Shown: in pieces, positions 30,432 to 49,864 of the stretch
Position numbering within the stretch: the stretch's first letter is position 1
Layout: each line of letters opens with the position of its first letter
Assembly: GCA_044368015.1 (NCBI GenBank)
Contig: JBIPLF010000004.1
Location: forward strand, 246 to 64,245
DNA: 64,000 nt
Direction of reading: 5' to 3'
Origin: Rickettsiales bacterium
GTDB lineage: Bacteria; Pseudomonadota; Alphaproteobacteria; Rickettsiales; RI-342
Notes under the pieces: model-generated
What the model was told of the DNA's origin: nothing
The model's database searches: none
What the model saw: only the letters and a program-made list of their open reading frames with translations
Program-made: the position numbers and the translations under genes

Positions 30432-30508
30432 TGGCGGTCCCGGCGCGATTCGAACGCGCGACCTTTAGATTCGGAATCTAACACTCTATCCAGCTGAGCT
30501 ACGGGACC
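30432..30508 (-). tRNA. tRNA-Arg (anticodon CCG)
   Basis: The reverse complement ggtcccgtagctcagctggatagagtgttagattCCGaatctaaaggtcgcgcgttcgaatcgcgccgggaccgcca folds as a 77-nt cloverleaf. It has a 7-bp acceptor stem, GTTCGAAT T-loop and encoded CCA. Confidence 0.9.
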
Positions 30509-43560: not shown

Positions 43561-44844
43561 CTACGCCGCCAACGCACTCTTACGTTGCTCAATCCGTGCT
43601 TCAATCTCCGGACGGAAATGGCGGATAAGCCCCTGAATCGGCCAGGCGGCGGCATCGCCGAGTGCACAGATCGTATGCCCTTCGATCTGTTTGGTGAGCG
43701 CATGGAGCTGGTCGATCTCCGCCAGTTCAGCATCGCCTCGCACCATGCGATCCATGATGCGTGACAGCCACCCGGTTCCCTCGCGGCAGGGGGTGCATTG
43801 CCCACAGGATTCATGCATGTAGAATTTCGAGAGCCGCGCAATCGCCCGCACAATATCGGTGGATTTATCCATCACAATCACCGCCGCCGTTCCAAGACCG
43901 GACTGCACGGCGCGCAGCGAATCGAAATCCATCAGCACCGTATCGCAGGTGGTTTTAGGCAACACCGGCACCGAGGAACCGCCGGGGATGACGGCCAGCA
44001 GATTATCCCATCCACCGCGCACCCCGCCCGCATGTTTTTCAATCAGTTCCTTAAGCGGAATGCCCATTTCCTCTTCGACATTGCAGGGCTTATTCACATG
44101 GCCGGAAATGCAGAACACCTTGGTTCCGGTATTGTTGGGGCGGCCGATTTTCGCAAACCACTCCGCTCCACGCCGCAGAATCGTCGGCACCACGGCGATA
44201 CTCTCCACATTATTGACGGTGGTGGGGCATCCCCACACCCCGCAGGCGGCTGGGAAAGGCGGCTTCAGACGCGGCTGTCCCTTTTTGCCTTCCAGGCTTT
44301 CGATCAGCGCGGTTTCCTCGCCACAGATATAGGCCCCTGCCCCGCTATGGACGTAGATATCGAAGTCGAACCCGCTGCCGCAGGCATTCTTGCCGATCAG
44401 TTTCGCCGCATAGGCCTCGTCGATGGCGGATTGCAGCGCCAGAATCTCCTGATAAAATTCCCCGCGCACATAGATATAGGCGGCTTTGGCGCGGATCGCA
44501 AAACCCGCAATCAGGCAACCTTCCACTAATTTATGCGGGTCGTGACGCATCATGTCACGGTCTTTACAGGTACCCGGCTCGCCCTCATCGGCATTGACCA
44601 CCAGATAGGAAGGCCGCCCGTCCGACTGCTTGGGCATGAAGGACCATTTCATCCCGGTGGAGAACCCCGCCCCTCCGCGACCGCGCAGGCCCGAAGCCTT
44701 CACCTGATCGATGATCCATTCCTGCCCCTTGGTGAGAATCTCTTTAGTGCCATCCCAATCACCACGCGACTTCGCAGCCTGAAGGCCCGCGCTCGCCTGC
44801 CCATAGAGATTGGTAAAAATACGATCGGAATCGGAAAGAGCCAT
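43561..44844 (-). CDS. nuoF: NADH-quinone oxidoreductase subunit F (51-kDa, FMN/NADH-binding)
   Basis: [19 protein letters not shown] site and the 4Fe-4S motif [12 protein letters not shown]. Confidence 0.95.
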
Positions 44845-44877
44845 AAACGCACTTCTTGGTTAAGAAAAATGTACCAG

Positions 44878-45135
44878 CTAACGTAACACCCATTCACCGG
44901 TTTCACGGATGGCAGCGTACATGGCATCTGGGGCGAGATCAACTCCTCCCGGCCATGTCACGGCTCCGCCCTCAATATAGGCCTCTGCAAATGTGGCGGG
45001 ATTCCTCAAACTGGCAAAAACACCCGTCAGATGCGAAGGCTCAAAACGTACGACCCCCCTCGTTCCATCCAGAAAAGAGACCTGAAGCTCAAGGGGGGGG
45101 GACACCATTATTTCACGTACATCCCAATACATCAC
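44878..45135 (-). CDS. DUF2442 domain protein
   Basis: 85 aa. The C-terminal GGAVTWPGGVDLAPDAMY resembles the DUF2442 signature. GTG 45135 or ATG 45132 start, 1 nt after the preceding stop. Confidence 0.65.
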   Translation of the reverse strand: MMYWDVREIMVSPPLELQVSFLDGTRGVVRFEPSHLTGVFASLRNPATFAEAYIEGGAVTWPGGVDLAPDAMYAAIRETGEWVLR

Positions 45136-45136
45136 T

Positions 45137-45409
45137 CTACTCCAGTGGGGGAACGGGTTTTGGAAGCTGTTTCGCCTGACAGCAAGCCCAGTTGTCCAAC
45201 AGCTCCTTCTGATGCAATTCAGCCCAATCCATGATCAGTTCTTGTGCACGACGGGGCACATTGCCTTCGATACATCTTAAATTTTCAATGTCAAATGTCG
45301 CTTTATGACCACCATATTCCGCGTGGAAGTGTGGCGGAGCATGATCGTTAAAGAACATCCGGATCACAATACCAAAGAATTGGCTGATAGTGGGCATCGT
45401 TTTTTCCAA
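45137..45409 (-). CDS. DUF4160 domain protein
   Basis: MPTISQFFGIVIRMFFNDHAPPHFHAEYGGHKATF matches the DUF4160 N-terminal signature. The likely real start is ATG 45397, since the track start 45409 is TTG. Confidence 0.7.
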   Translation of the reverse strand: MEKTMPTISQFFGIVIRMFFNDHAPPHFHAEYGGHKATFDIENLRCIEGNVPRRAQELIMDWAELHQKELLDNWACCQAKQLPKPVPPLE

Positions 45410-45655
45410 TCATGAGGGCAATCCGTTTTCATCATACCCCAGTATTTCGTCCGGAGAGCGTGGATCCAGTACAGGAAGGGCTGCACACTCCGCTCCAATC
45501 GCCAGAATCCGCCGGATGCGCTCTTTCCGCCCCTCCTCTTCCTGAATGCTTTTCGTCAAGGCTTCTTCGATCGCCTGCTCCACGGAAATACCACGCATGA
45601 TCGCCAACGCCTCTGCCATTTTTGGAATGGCTGGGTTCTCGATATGGAGTTCCAT
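45410..45655 (-). CDS. vapB: VapB-type antitoxin, Rv0623/PSK-operon transcription factor family
   Basis: 81 aa. The layout (N-terminal ribbon region, charged linker, C-terminal ECAALPVLDPRSPDEILGYDENGLPS) parallels M. tuberculosis VapB30-type antitoxins. Starts 1 nt after the nuoE stop. Confidence 0.75.
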   Translation of the reverse strand: MELHIENPAIPKMAEALAIMRGISVEQAIEEALTKSIQEEEGRKERIRRILAIGAECAALPVLDPRSPDEILGYDENGLPS

Positions 45656-45656
45656 G

Positions 45657-46292
45657 CTATTTCACCTCTTTAAGCGTCGTGCGGCCGCCTTCGGGTGCCG
45701 AAGTCTGACGATCCACCTGCGGGCCGGGTTTGGGCAGCGTCCCCTGTTTCAGGCTATCGAGAATCTTGACCGTGGTTTCGGCGGTTAGGTCCTCGTAGAA
45801 CTGGATGTAGTTGGCATCGTCGGCGTCGTGATGGTTGATCTGCATCATGGGTGCATTGACGCAGGCCCCCAGACATTCCACCTCTGCGAGGGTAAATTTG
45901 CCGTCGCCCGTCGTTTCGCCGGGCTGAATACCGAGATGCCTCTCACAGGCCTCCATCACCTGATCCGACCCACGCAGCCAACAGGGCGTAGTGGTGCAGA
46001 CCTGCACAAAATGCGTACCCACAGGCGCCAGATTATACATGCTGTAGAAACTGGCCACTTCGTACACGCGGATATAGGGCATCCCCAGCATCTCGGCGAT
46101 GGTGTCCATCGCGGCGCGGGGAATCCAGCCGCCATGCTGGCGTTGCGCCAAGTCGAGCAGCGGCATCACTGCGCTTTGCTGAAACCCTTCCGGGTATTTG
46201 GCAATGAAATGCTCCGCCCGCTTTAGGTTTTCAGGCGTGAACGCGAAGGTACGGGGTTGCTCAAAAGCAGCTGGGGCAGCGGAATGGGCCAT
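45657..46292 (-). CDS. nuoE: NADH-quinone oxidoreductase subunit E (24-kDa, 2Fe-2S)
   Basis: Thioredoxin-like fold with the Cys pattern VCTTTPCWLRG ... ECLGACVNAP. Confidence 0.95.
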   Translation of the reverse strand: MAHSAAPAAFEQPRTFAFTPENLKRAEHFIAKYPEGFQQSAVMPLLDLAQRQHGGWIPRAAMDTIAEMLGMPYIRVYEVASFYSMYNLAPVGTHFVQVCTTTPCWLRGSDQVMEACERHLGIQPGETTGDGKFTLAEVECLGACVNAPMMQINHHDADDANYIQFYEDLTAETTVKILDSLKQGTLPKPGPQVDRQTSAPEGGRTTLKEVK

Positions 46293-46356
46293 GAATTCAC
46301 CTAATGTTCAAACATTCGCGCCACTATGCCGGGTTCGATCGCGCTTTTCAAGTGCG

Positions 46357-47343
46357 CTACACCAACCCCACCCGCTGATGCACCGCCTGCATGGTTTGTG
46401 CTGCAATCGGCCGCACACGGTCGAGGCTTTTTTGCAACACCGACCGCACGTAAGGCTGGTCGTCCTGCAACCGGCGCATCTCCGCCGTAATAGGCGAGAG
46501 GGTCGCCACGGCAAGCTCGGTCAATGCCTCTTTGAACTTGGAGAAGTTATAGGAAGCAAACTGCGCTTCCACCTCTGCACGCGGCAAATCCGCGAGCGCA
46601 GCGTAAATCGTCAGCAGATTCGAGGCCTCCGGACGGGTTTGCGGATCATATTGCATCCCCTCCAGCATATCGGATTTCGCCTTGCGGATTTTCAGCGCAA
46701 TCGTGTCTGCATCGTCGGTGAGGTTGATCCGCGCATAGTCAGAGCTGTCCGACTTGCTCATCTTCTTCGTGCCATCGCGCAAACTCATGACCCGTGCGGC
46801 CTGACTAAGGATCATCGGCTCCGGCAGCGGGAAATACTCCTCTCCCACGGCGCGGTTAAAGGCCCCGGCGATGTCGCGCATCAGTTCGATATGTTGTTTT
46901 TGATCCTCACCCACCGGCACATGGGTCCCGTGATACAGCAGCACATCTGCCGCCATCAATACGGGATACGCATACAACCCCAGCGGTGCTTTTTCCTTAT
47001 CCTTCCCCGATTTTTCCTTGAACTGCGTCATGCGGTTGAGCCAGCCAATCGGCGTATGGCAGTTGAATATCCAGGCCAGCTCCGCGTGCCCACTCACGGC
47101 CGATTGCGGAAAAATCGCGCTTTTTTCGGGGTTGATCCCGCAGGCGATGAAGGCCGACGCGGTTTCCAGTACGCTTGCCCGCAGCGCGTCCGGATCCTGC
47201 GGCACGGTGATCGCGTGCAGATCCGCCATAAACACCAGACATTCTTTCTCGTGCTGCAAGGCCACCGTGGGACGAATCATCCCCAGATAATTCCCCAAAT
47301 GCAGATGCCCGCTGGGCTGCACCCCCGATACGATACGTTGCAT
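46357..47343 (-). CDS. trpS: tryptophan--tRNA ligase
   Basis: VSGVQPSGHLHLGNYLG (HIGH region) and KMSKSD. ATG 47343 is preceded by GGAGG. Confidence 0.9.
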   Translation of the reverse strand: MQRIVSGVQPSGHLHLGNYLGMIRPTVALQHEKECLVFMADLHAITVPQDPDALRASVLETASAFIACGINPEKSAIFPQSAVSGHAELAWIFNCHTPIGWLNRMTQFKEKSGKDKEKAPLGLYAYPVLMAADVLLYHGTHVPVGEDQKQHIELMRDIAGAFNRAVGEEYFPLPEPMILSQAARVMSLRDGTKKMSKSDSSDYARINLTDDADTIALKIRKAKSDMLEGMQYDPQTRPEASNLLTIYAALADLPRAEVEAQFASYNFSKFKEALTELAVATLSPITAEMRRLQDDQPYVRSVLQKSLDRVRPIAAQTMQAVHQRVGLV

Positions 47344-47395
47344 GATACCTCCCCTTTTCAGGCTTCGTTTAACCGAAAGGCTTTCCCACAGCAAC

Positions 47396-47455: not shown

Positions 47456-49864
47456 ATGACCGAATCCGCCCTGCAACGTTACCCGCTGCTGCCGTTACGC
47501 GATATTGTCGTGTTTCCGAGCATGATCGTGCCCCTGTTCGTGGGACGCGAGAAGTCCGTCAAGGCGCTGGAGGATGTGGTGCGCACGGATAAGAAAATCC
47601 TGCTCGTCGCGCAACGCAACGCCAATCAGGATGATCCCGGTCCCAAGGATTTATACCGCGTGGGGACGCTCGCCAGCATCCTGCAACTGCTGAAACTCCC
47701 CGATGGCACGGTGAAAGTGCTGGTGGAAGGGCTGGAGCGCAACAAGATTGTCGAATATCTGGAAGCCCCCGGCTACTACGCCGTCCACGCAGAAAAACTG
47801 CATGATGCATCGGGCAGCGCAGAAGATGTGCAGGCGCTTACCCGCTCGCTGATGGCGCGGTTTGAGGAATATATCAAGCTCAACAAGAAGATTCCGCCGG
47901 AAGTGCTGGGCGCACTGAATCAGGTAGAAGATGCCGGAAGGCTGGCCGATACCATCGTCTCACACATGGCGCTCAAAATTCCGGACAAACAGCAGGTGCT
48001 GGAGCTTTCGGACATCGCCAAGCGGTTGGAGAAAGTCTACGGCTTTCTGGAGAGCGAAATCAGCGTGCTCAACACGGAGAAACGCATCCGTTCCCGCGTC
48101 AAGCGCCAGATGGAGAAAACCCAGCGCGAATATTATCTGAATGAGCAGATGAAAGCGATTCAGAAAGAGCTGGGCGAAACCGAGGAAGGCAAAGACGAAT
48201 ACAGCGAGCTGGAAGACAAGATCAAAAAAACCCGCATGACCAAAGAGGCGAAGGACAAAGCCAAAGCGGAGATGAAAAAACTCCGCACCATGAGCGCGAT
48301 GTCGGCGGAAGCCTCGGTGATTCGTAACTATCTGGAATGGCTGGTGAGCATTCCGTGGAAGAAATTCTCCCGCGTCAAGAAAGACCTGCGCGAAGCCCAA
48401 AGCGTGCTGGATCACGACCATTACGGGCTGGAAAAGGTCAAGGAACGGATTCTGGAGCATCTGGCCGTGCATCAACGCACCGGCGCGGTGCAGGGGTCGC
48501 TGCTATGCCTTGTCGGCCCTCCAGGTGTAGGAAAAACCTCGCTGGCACGCTCTATCGCACGGGCCACGGGCCGCAAATATGTGCGGATGTCTCTTGGTGG
48601 TGTGCGGGACGAAGCCGAGATTCGCGGCCATCGCCGCACCTATATCGGCTCCATGCCGGGGAAAATCATCCATAGCATGAAGAAGGCCGGAGCCTCTAAC
48701 CCGCTGTTACTGCTGGATGAAATCGACAAAATGGGGCATGATTTCCGGGGCGACCCGGCCGCCGCCCTGCTGGAGGTGCTGGACCCTGAACAAAATAAGG
48801 AATTCAGCGATCACTATCTGGAAGTGGATTACGACCTCTCCAATGTGATGTTCATCTGCACGGCGAACTCGCTGAAAATGCCGCGTCCGCTGCTCGACCG
48901 GATGGAGATCATCCGCCTTTCCGGTTACACGGAACGCGAGAAGGTGGAAATCGCCAAGCGCCACCTCATCGCCAAGCAACGCAAAGAACATGGGGTGAAG
49001 GAAGGCGAACTGACCATCACCGAAGACGCCCTGCGCGACACCATCCGCTACTATACCCGCGAGGCGGGAGTGCGGAATCTGGAACGGGAACTTGCCAAAC
49101 TCTGCCGTAAAACGGTGCGGGAAATCCTGTTAGGCGGTACGCAGCATGTGACGATCACGGCGGAGAATCTCAGTGAATATCTGGGCGTGCGGAAGCATAA
49201 TTTCGGCGTGGCAGAGCTGGAAGATCTGGTGGGCGTCACCACCGGCCTTGCCTATACCGAGGTCGGCGGCGACCTGCTACAAATTGAAGCGGTAACCGTT
49301 CCCGGCAAGGGCAAGCTCACCATCACCGGACAGTTGGGCGAAGTGATGCAGGAATCCGCGCAGGCGGCAATGAGCTTTGTGCGCTCGCGCTGTCTGGATT
49401 TTGGCATTATTCCACCGGAATATCAGAATGTGGATATCCACGTCCATGTTCCGGAAGGCGCGGTGCCGAAGGACGGCCCCTCGGCGGGTGTCGCCATGAC
49501 CACCACGATTGTTTCCGTGCTCACCGGCATTCCGGTGCGGAAAAACGTGGCCATGACGGGCGAGATCAACCTGCGCGGCGCGGTGACCGCCATCGGCGGC
49601 TTAAAGGAGAAGCTCCTCGCGGCGCTGCGTGGCGGCATTGATACCGTGCTGATCCCTCAGGAGAATGTGAAAGACTTGGAGGACATCCCCGATGAGGTCA
49701 AAAACGGCCTGACCATCATCCCTGTGCTCACGGCAGAGGAAGCGCTGAAAATCGCCCTCTCCCGTCCCTTTGAGCGCCGGGAATGGACCCCTCCCCTGCC
49801 CGCGATCCCGCTCGCCGCCATCGCGGAGGAAGAGGCGGATGACGAGGTGCGGCGGAAGCATTAG
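47456..49864 (+). CDS. lon: ATP-dependent protease Lon
   Basis: LON N-domain, Walker A GPPGVGKTS, catalytic Ser motif PKDGPSAGVAMTT. Confidence 0.95.
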   Translation: MTESALQRYPLLPLRDIVVFPSMIVPLFVGREKSVKALEDVVRTDKKILLVAQRNANQDDPGPKDLYRVGTLASILQLLKLPDGTVKVLVEGLERNKIVEYLEAPGYYAVHAEKLHDASGSAEDVQALTRSLMARFEEYIKLNKKIPPEVLGALNQVEDAGRLADTIVSHMALKIPDKQQVLELSDIAKRLEKVYGFLESEISVLNTEKRIRSRVKRQMEKTQREYYLNEQMKAIQKELGETEEGKDEYSELEDKIKKTRMTKEAKDKAKAEMKKLRTMSAMSAEASVIRNYLEWLVSIPWKKFSRVKKDLREAQSVLDHDHYGLEKVKERILEHLAVHQRTGAVQGSLLCLVGPPGVGKTSLARSIARATGRKYVRMSLGGVRDEAEIRGHRRTYIGSMPGKIIHSMKKAGASNPLLLLDEIDKMGHDFRGDPAAALLEVLDPEQNKEFSDHYLEVDYDLSNVMFICTANSLKMPRPLLDRMEIIRLSGYTEREKVEIAKRHLIAKQRKEHGVKEGELTITEDALRDTIRYYTREAGVRNLERELAKLCRKTVREILLGGTQHVTITAENLSEYLGVRKHNFGVAELEDLVGVTTGLAYTEVGGDLLQIEAVTVPGKGKLTITGQLGEVMQESAQAAMSFVRSRCLDFGIIPPEYQNVDIHVHVPEGAVPKDGPSAGVAMTTTIVSVLTGIPVRKNVAMTGEINLRGAVTAIGGLKEKLLAALRGGIDTVLIPQENVKDLEDIPDEVKNGLTIIPVLTAEEALKIALSRPFERREWTPPLPAIPLAAIAEEEADDEVRRKH

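Follow-up and report, generated by a model that had tools for sequence, protein, structure and literature searches.

The gene pair dhiTA of Dickeya dadantii 3937, which encodes a DUF4160 protein followed by a DUF2442 protein (DUF, domain of unknown function), was reported in 2021 to be a type II toxin-antitoxin (TA) system. Its genes are arranged toxin-first and are co-transcribed; DhiT stops the growth of Dickeya and of E. coli, co-expression of DhiA abolishes this effect, and the dhiTA promoter is repressed by DhiA and, more strongly, by the DhiTA complex (PMC8198452). A homologous plasmid pair from Thermus thermophilus was described in 2025 as a 'persistence-enhancing module' that raises plasmid persistence: a plasmid without the second gene gave no T. 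thermophilus transformants, one without the first gene did give them, and the genes had no visible effect in E. coli (PMC12724237). According to a comparative study of the Menshen defence system, most DUF4160 proteins consist of this single domain and have a DUF2442 gene next downstream; in the NsnC proteins of Menshen the domain acts as an effector, and it has no confident structural relative (PMC12065111). Orphan antitoxins, for their part, are a recognised class whose members are usually interpreted as remnants of degraded modules, as anti-addiction factors or as regulators of toxins encoded elsewhere (PMC7354431). Here, we analyse a locus from a Rickettsiales bacterium in which a DUF4160/DUF2442 pair directly follows a gene for a VapB30-type antitoxin, all three genes lying between nuoE and nuoF in a 64,000-nucleotide (nt) stretch of contig JBIPLF010000004.1 (assembly GCA_044368015.1), which we refer to as the window.

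The three small open reading frames (ORFs) are present on the minus strand between nuoE and nuoF as the initial annotation had described them, and we consider it likely that they represent two unrelated TA pieces standing side by side, namely an orphan VapB (ORF1) and a complete DhiTA pair (ORF2 and ORF3), which were brought together by chance and do not form a three-gene system. This reading draws on direct observations of family membership, gene order, conservation of the pair, missing linkage between VapB and DhiT, foreign composition and the site of insertion, each of which is taken up below; that the dhiTA copy of the window is active is presumed by analogy with the pairs tested in other bacteria. 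Profile searches placed all three ORFs in the families to which they had initially been assigned. The accompanying statement that no function has been established by experiment for either DUF is, on the other hand, outdated, given the published results on DhiT and DhiA (PMC8198452, PMC12724237).

ORF1 matches PF07704 (Rv0623-like) in Pfam over its full length (E = 1.4e-18, above the curated cut-off), and a profile built from its family matches M. tuberculosis VapB30 (PDB 4xgq_B, E = 9e-33), in keeping with the VapB30-type identity proposed at the outset. The protein keeps all 11 residues that are invariant in its clade, including the C-terminal LPVLDPRSPDEILGYDENGLP, and scores 104.9 bits against a family hidden Markov model built without ORF1, as compared with a median of 114.5 bits for the homologues from genomes. 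On these two results a decayed VapB was rejected, and ORF1 is a well-preserved orphan antitoxin of the VapB30 type. At the N-terminus of the VapB family, weak matches to RHH_1, CopG and Arc were found, indicating a ribbon-helix-helix-like region. When we searched the whole 64-kilobase (kb) window with a hidden Markov model built from 70 VapC partners of ORF1's VapB clade, no PIN ORF was detected in any frame at E <= 1, which extends to the entire window the earlier observation that none lies nearby.

ORF2 is a DUF4160 protein (PF13711; E = 5.4e-24, 84.6 bits against a cutoff of 23) and ORF3 a DUF2442 protein (PF10387; E = 8.4e-11, 42.4 bits against a cutoff of 23.9), both by Pfam and both as first annotated. 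ORF2 is 63-73% identical to the 86-amino-acid (aa) homologues with which it was aligned, and it retains all 31 residues that are invariant among DhiT sequences in a 42-sequence alignment, including H19, H23 and H25 of the motif HAPPHFH; ORF3 retains all 8 invariant columns of the DhiA family alignment and reaches 64% identity with the genes found directly 3' of the closest DUF4160 genes. An AlphaFold2 model of DhiT comprises five strands and two helices (predicted local distance difference test score, 90.5), for which neither sequence nor fold searches returned a match in the PDB or BFVD, and single-sequence and profile searches for DhiA in the PDB gave chance-level matches only. The invariant histidines of HAPPHFH, together with the use of DUF4160 as an effector domain in Menshen NsnC, suggest that DhiT has an enzymatic activity, possibly that of a nuclease. 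None of the three proteins matched a PADLOC model, and there is therefore no tie to a catalogued defence system; in PHROGs, ORF2 and ORF3 matched families of unknown function alone and ORF1 gave marginal matches.

To place the arrangement in context, we surveyed the neighbourhoods of ORF1 relatives at the best 80 of at least 570 genome loci, and those of ORF2 relatives at the best 80 of at least 573 metagenomic loci, plus 23 viral loci. In the metagenomic set, a DUF2442 gene lies directly 3' of the DUF4160 gene, on the same strand, at 73 of the 80 loci, and at six of the seven loci without one the contig ends no more than about 150 nt from DUF4160. Across 68 loci, the identity of the toxin to ORF2 correlates with that of the antitoxin to ORF3 (Spearman 0.52, p = 7e-6), and the closest toxins adjoin the closest antitoxins, with up to 67% identity for the toxin and 64% for the antitoxin. 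ORF2 and ORF3 are a complete, self-contained two-gene module. The genes 5' of DUF4160 vary widely in size, and a VapB-like ORF (E <= 0.01) was found at none of the 80 metagenomic loci, 68 of which have at least 300 nt of upstream sequence, nor did one appear in any of the 23 viral loci. Next to the closest homologue of DhiT, with 73% identity, a DUF2442 gene follows the toxin gene, about 295 nt free of called genes precede it, and VapB is missing.

The VapB survey gave the complementary picture. Pfam PIN domains were found in 76 of the 82 candidate ORFs that begin at the vapB stop or just behind it, which agrees with the expectation that this antitoxin family is normally followed by a PIN toxin, and the closest named relatives, such as that of Azospirillum sp. 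TSO22-1, show PSK_trans_fac and then PIN. At none of the 80 loci did the flanking sequence, about 3 kb to each side, contain an ORF for DUF4160 or DUF2442. The exact order vapB-DUF4160-DUF2442 is on record in two contigs whose DNA is identical over their overlap, and the triple occurs in this organism only. The linkage between VapB and DhiTA is not recurrent, and the arrangement is a singleton. The initial annotation had favoured a new TA or tripartite module under the control of a VapB-like protein and had named a lack of recurrent linkage between the families as the result that would speak against it; with DUF4160 following an Rv0623-type antitoxin at none of the 80 nearest VapB loci, and VapB at none of the 103 DUF4160 loci, that option is not borne out. 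Its second option, in which an orphaned vapB lies next to a DUF4160-DUF2442 pair that is independent of it, gains support from the conservation of the pair as well as from the missing VapB linkage.

These counts also bear on the idea that the true antitoxin of DUF4160, or a second one, is VapB, acting through its C-terminal tail in a mix-and-match pairing. Although vapB stands directly 5' of the toxin gene, which is the usual position of an antitoxin, and cross-interactions between non-cognate antitoxins and toxins have been described in reviews (PMC7354431), we regard this as extremely unlikely: the combination does not recur in either survey, and the toxin already has its cognate DUF2442 antitoxin, which is intact and diverges along with it. 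In addition, the C-terminal motif of ORF1 is common to the VapB homologues that neighbour PIN genes and to VapB30 of the solved VapBC30 complex, whereas the modelled fold of DhiT has no match in the PDB and is hence not PIN-like.

The DUF4160/DUF2442 family is widely mobile. Close homologues of ORF2 occur in Nitrospira, Cyanobacteria and Burkholderiaceae, and the DUF4160 family is found on 23 viral contigs and in 47 plasmid records, including ones from Thermus, Legionella and Thiobacillus, the last of which carries a DUF4160/DUF2442 pair near a rep gene. At three loci, two DUF4160 genes lie close together (L105, 585..1622; L118, 667..2683; L168, 2384..4380). At L105, each has its own DUF2442 partner and the pairs are in tandem; at L168, a viral contig, each likewise has a partner and the pairs are on opposite strands; at L118, one DUF2442 partner was detected for the two DUF4160 genes. 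Such clusters suggest local duplication or clustering of dhiTA modules.

The features of the locus are collected in Table 1, in which the starts of ORF2 and ORF3 differ from the mechanical calls. For ORF2, the mechanical call reaches a TTG at 45409 (45137..45409, 90 aa); because a length of 86 aa and the opening MPTIS are shared by nearly all of the 120 best homologues, and because the alignment to the NCBIfam DhiT model begins at residue 5 of the 90-aa call, the true start is most likely the ATG at 45397. For ORF3, the call begins at a GTG at 45135 (44878..45135), and the true start is most likely the ATG at 45132, which has a GGAG 7 nt on its 5' side and yields the M-x-W-D-V opening seen in ORF3 homologues. 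With these starts, the spacing of 0-1 nt originally reported for the block holds for nuoE and vapB, which are separated by 1 nt, whereas the vapB-dhiT and dhiT-dhiA spacers are 12 and 4 nt long; from the stop of dhiA to nuoF there are 33 nt. A GAGGTG site resembling a Shine-Dalgarno sequence lies 9 nt 5' of vapB.

Table 1. Genes and sequence elements of the nuoE-nuoF region, in window coordinates.
Feature	Coordinates	Strand	Basis
nuoE, NADH-quinone oxidoreductase subunit E, 211 aa	45657..46292	minus	Pfam 2Fe-2S_thioredx
vapB (ORF1), VapB30/Rv0623-type antitoxin, 81 aa, orphan without cognate vapC	45410..45655	minus	PF07704
dhiT-like toxin gene (ORF2), DUF4160, 86 aa	45137..45397	minus	PF13711
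dhiA-like antitoxin gene (ORF3), DUF2442, 84 aa	44878..45132	minus	PF10387
nuoF, subunit F, 427 aa	43561..44844	minus	Pfam Complex1_51K
ATGATTG across vapB stop, possible 5' stump of lost vapC	45407..45413	minus	identity with vapC starts
Sigma-70-like promoter match upstream of nuoE	46323..46351	minus	consensus scan, 9/12 matches; hint only

The junction at the end of vapB bears on the fate of the missing toxin gene. The TGA stop of vapB overlaps an ATG, as is the norm at the vapB-vapC junctions of ORF1's clade, and the resulting ATGATTG recurs as the opening 7 nt of vapC in two relatives (L028 and L053), whose vapC genes begin ATG ATT GTC GAT. The sequence is possibly a stump of vapC, with the break just after it.

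The vapB-dhiT-dhiA block is compositionally foreign. Its G+C content is 0.48-0.55 as compared with 0.59 in the flanks, so that the block is AT-richer than nuoE and nuoF as noted initially, and the G+C content at third codon positions is likewise lower, with values of 0.57 (vapB), 0.51 (dhiT) and 0.51 (dhiA) against 0.71 (nuoE), 0.68 (nuoF) and 0.72 (trpS). In four relatives, nuoE and nuoF lie 0-10 nt apart within a standard nuoA-N operon, and the gap of 812 nt that separates them here, filled by the three minus-strand genes, is therefore an insertion at a gene boundary. Both neighbours have remained intact: NuoE is at most 72% identical to the NuoE of the nearest relatives, a similarity that puts the organism within the Alphaproteobacteria, and NuoF is 80% identical to the NuoF of loci L162 and L164.

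How the block arrived was considered in two further respects. No direct or inverted repeats flank the block at its boundaries, so that a transposon or integrase signature was not found. As to whether insertions recur at the nuoE-nuoF boundary, none of the four relatives has an insert there, in a sample too small to generalise. A 27-nt direct repeat (70% identical) links 45141..45167, at the 3' end of dhiT (LPKPVPP), with 45712..45738, at the 3' end of nuoE (LPKPGPQ); it lies away from the insertion boundaries and is probably due to chance. The sole tRNA gene, encoding tRNA-Arg(CCG), is located on the minus strand at 30432..30508, about 14 kb from the block, and nothing suggests that the block integrated by way of it.

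The surrounding nuo genes are themselves displaced. The local order is trpS-nuoE-[block]-nuoF, then the convergent ntrY (43561..47394), and a tblastn search with a relative's NuoA-D and NuoG-I found no other nuo genes in the window, in which nuoE and nuoF are a stand-alone pair. In the four relatives the nuo operon is contiguous, and in the two closest it adjoins lon-hupB; in the window, lon (47456..49864) is still a neighbour but is read from the opposite strand. The detachment of nuoE-nuoF together with the orientation of lon therefore indicates that the nuo locus was either rearranged or broken up. NuoE also carries a 9-residue insertion (HHDA..ANYIQ) at residues ~154-165 (~45800..45835), in an otherwise highly conserved region, and this insertion is missing in the seven relatives with which it was compared.

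With regard to transcription, a consensus scan of the minus strand over 44845..45656 found nothing resembling a promoter or a terminator. The sole minus-strand sigma-70-like match near the block lies upstream of nuoE (Table 1), with a match count no higher than that of shuffled sequences. Other loci have long, variable and often AT-rich DNA 5' of DUF4160, sometimes with clear boxes resembling -35 and -10 elements, whereas the dhiT of the window is preceded by only 12 nt and lacks the promoter/operator region usually found 5' of dhiTA. At L085, L086 and L095, TTGACA-like and TATAAT-like boxes and repeated motifs lie in AT-rich DNA about 70 nt 5' of the DUF4160 start, and they probably represent the autoregulated promoter/operator missing from the window copy. 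Because this region is absent, transcription of vapB, dhiT and dhiA probably reads through from the promoter of nuoE, giving a nuoE-vapB-dhiT-dhiA-nuoF message.

The loss of the control region could also be taken to mean that VapB has filled it, that is, that the locus is a true tripartite system in which a VapB-like protein was recruited as the DNA-binding regulator of dhiTA, replacing its promoter/operator region. Omega in omega-epsilon-zeta and PaaR in paaR-paaA-parE are models for such a regulatory role of a third gene. The tight packing, with a gap of 12 nt between vapB and dhiT, the disappearance of the upstream region seen at other dhiTA loci, the full preservation of VapB and the ribbon-helix-helix-like N-terminus of its family would all fit this proposal. 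Against this, vapB begins 1 nt after the nuoE stop, which leaves no upstream non-coding DNA in which such a regulator could act, and no promoter-like site was found by the scan; the arrangement is a singleton by both surveys, with the triple confined to the two contigs of identical DNA; and the strictest conservation in VapB falls on the PIN-binding C-terminus, which would be superfluous in a pure regulator. In Dickeya, moreover, autoregulation by DhiA and by DhiTA involves no third protein (PMC8198452). On balance, we judge a tripartite system to be very unlikely. There is a similarly slim chance that a VapB30-like protein has been co-opted with DhiT and DhiA, as a regulator or second antitoxin, into a unit wired into nuoE-nuoF transcription; if this were true, TA dosage would follow the expression of the NADH-oxidising module of complex I.

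Two unrelated TA pieces joined by chance, the reading that we favour, would entail the following steps. The DUF4160 protein DhiT would be a growth-inhibiting toxin, and DhiA, the DUF2442 protein encoded just downstream, would bind and neutralise it. The dhiTA pair most likely replaced vapC immediately behind the stop codon of vapB, whether in the present genome or in that of a donor, and the resulting 812-nt foreign block would then have landed exactly between nuoE and nuoF. The block may persist through addiction, in that its loss would leave free DhiT, while the orphan VapB would be harmless; without a partner in the block, VapB would at most neutralise a VapC30-like toxin made elsewhere.

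Several points weigh against this reading. The putative vapC stump is just 7 nt long, and seven bases are weak evidence. An intact VapB, including its C-terminal toxin-binding motif, is unlike an old functionless relic, and this intactness implies either a recent loss of vapC or a continued role for VapB. The surveys cover the nearest loci and are short of a full census, and the promoter scan relied on consensus matching alone, where the promoters of the host may differ. Finally, ORF2 scores 86.1 bits against the NCBIfam model NF048015 (toxin_DhiT), below the equivalog cutoff of 100, which makes it a family relative, not an equivalog, of Dickeya DhiT, and no NCBIfam model matched ORF3; the window pair is a distant relative of the tested Dickeya pair, whose activity it is assumed to share.

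The last two results would also suit a reading in which all three genes are inert passengers, with dhiTA inactive or decaying and the block kept since the removal of DNA between nuoE and nuoF puts the operon at risk. The lack of a promoter of its own points the same way, and the Thermus genes, which showed no visible effect in E. coli, indicate that activity can be host-dependent (PMC12724237). The sequences themselves argue otherwise, as every one of the invariant DhiT residues and DhiA columns has been kept, the frames are intact, a plausible ribosome-binding site precedes dhiA, and the AlphaFold2 model of DhiT is confident. We therefore think it unlikely that the three genes are inert.

If two unrelated pieces do stand side by side, the locus adds a somewhat divergent new member to the known DhiTA family, beside an orphan antitoxin, and carries little weight as a new system. 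It would, at the same time, provide a clean natural example of the replacement of a toxin gene at a vapB-vapC junction, and such replacements create new antitoxin-toxin neighbourhoods and, in genome scans, misleading "novel modules". A TA pair without its own control region between genes for complex I could be used to test whether autoregulation is needed for such a pair to stay harmless, and a tractable DhiT homologue could help to find the target of DhiT.

Among described systems, three-component TA systems resemble the locus in having three small co-oriented genes, the first of which encodes a protein with a DNA-binding fold of the ribbon-helix-helix-like kind. Omega-epsilon-zeta, paaR-paaA-parE and the TAC chaperone systems are defined by recurrent three-gene synteny, whereas the arrangement in the window recurs in 0 of 183 related loci. 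With VapBC30 of M. tuberculosis (Rv0623/Rv0624; PDB 4XGQ, 4XGR), the likeness extends over the full length of ORF1 and includes the C-terminal motif LPVLDxRSxDEILGYDENGLP; the difference from VapBC30 and from other PF07704-PIN modules is that the window, with no PIN ORF in its 64 kb, lacks vapC and has dhiT in the position of the toxin. The DhiTA system of Dickeya and the Thermus pair share with ORF2 and ORF3 the same two Pfam domains, the toxin-first order, the sizes of 86 and 84 aa and a spacing of a few nt. Unlike them, the window pair, which is known from sequence alone, has no upstream promoter/operator region of its own by the consensus scan, is nested in nuoE-nuoF and is preceded by an unrelated antitoxin gene. 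The window vapB is, like the orphan antitoxins described previously (PMC7354431), intact and without an adjacent cognate toxin, but here the lost toxin seems not just to have been deleted or to have decayed, but to have been replaced precisely by a complete TA module.

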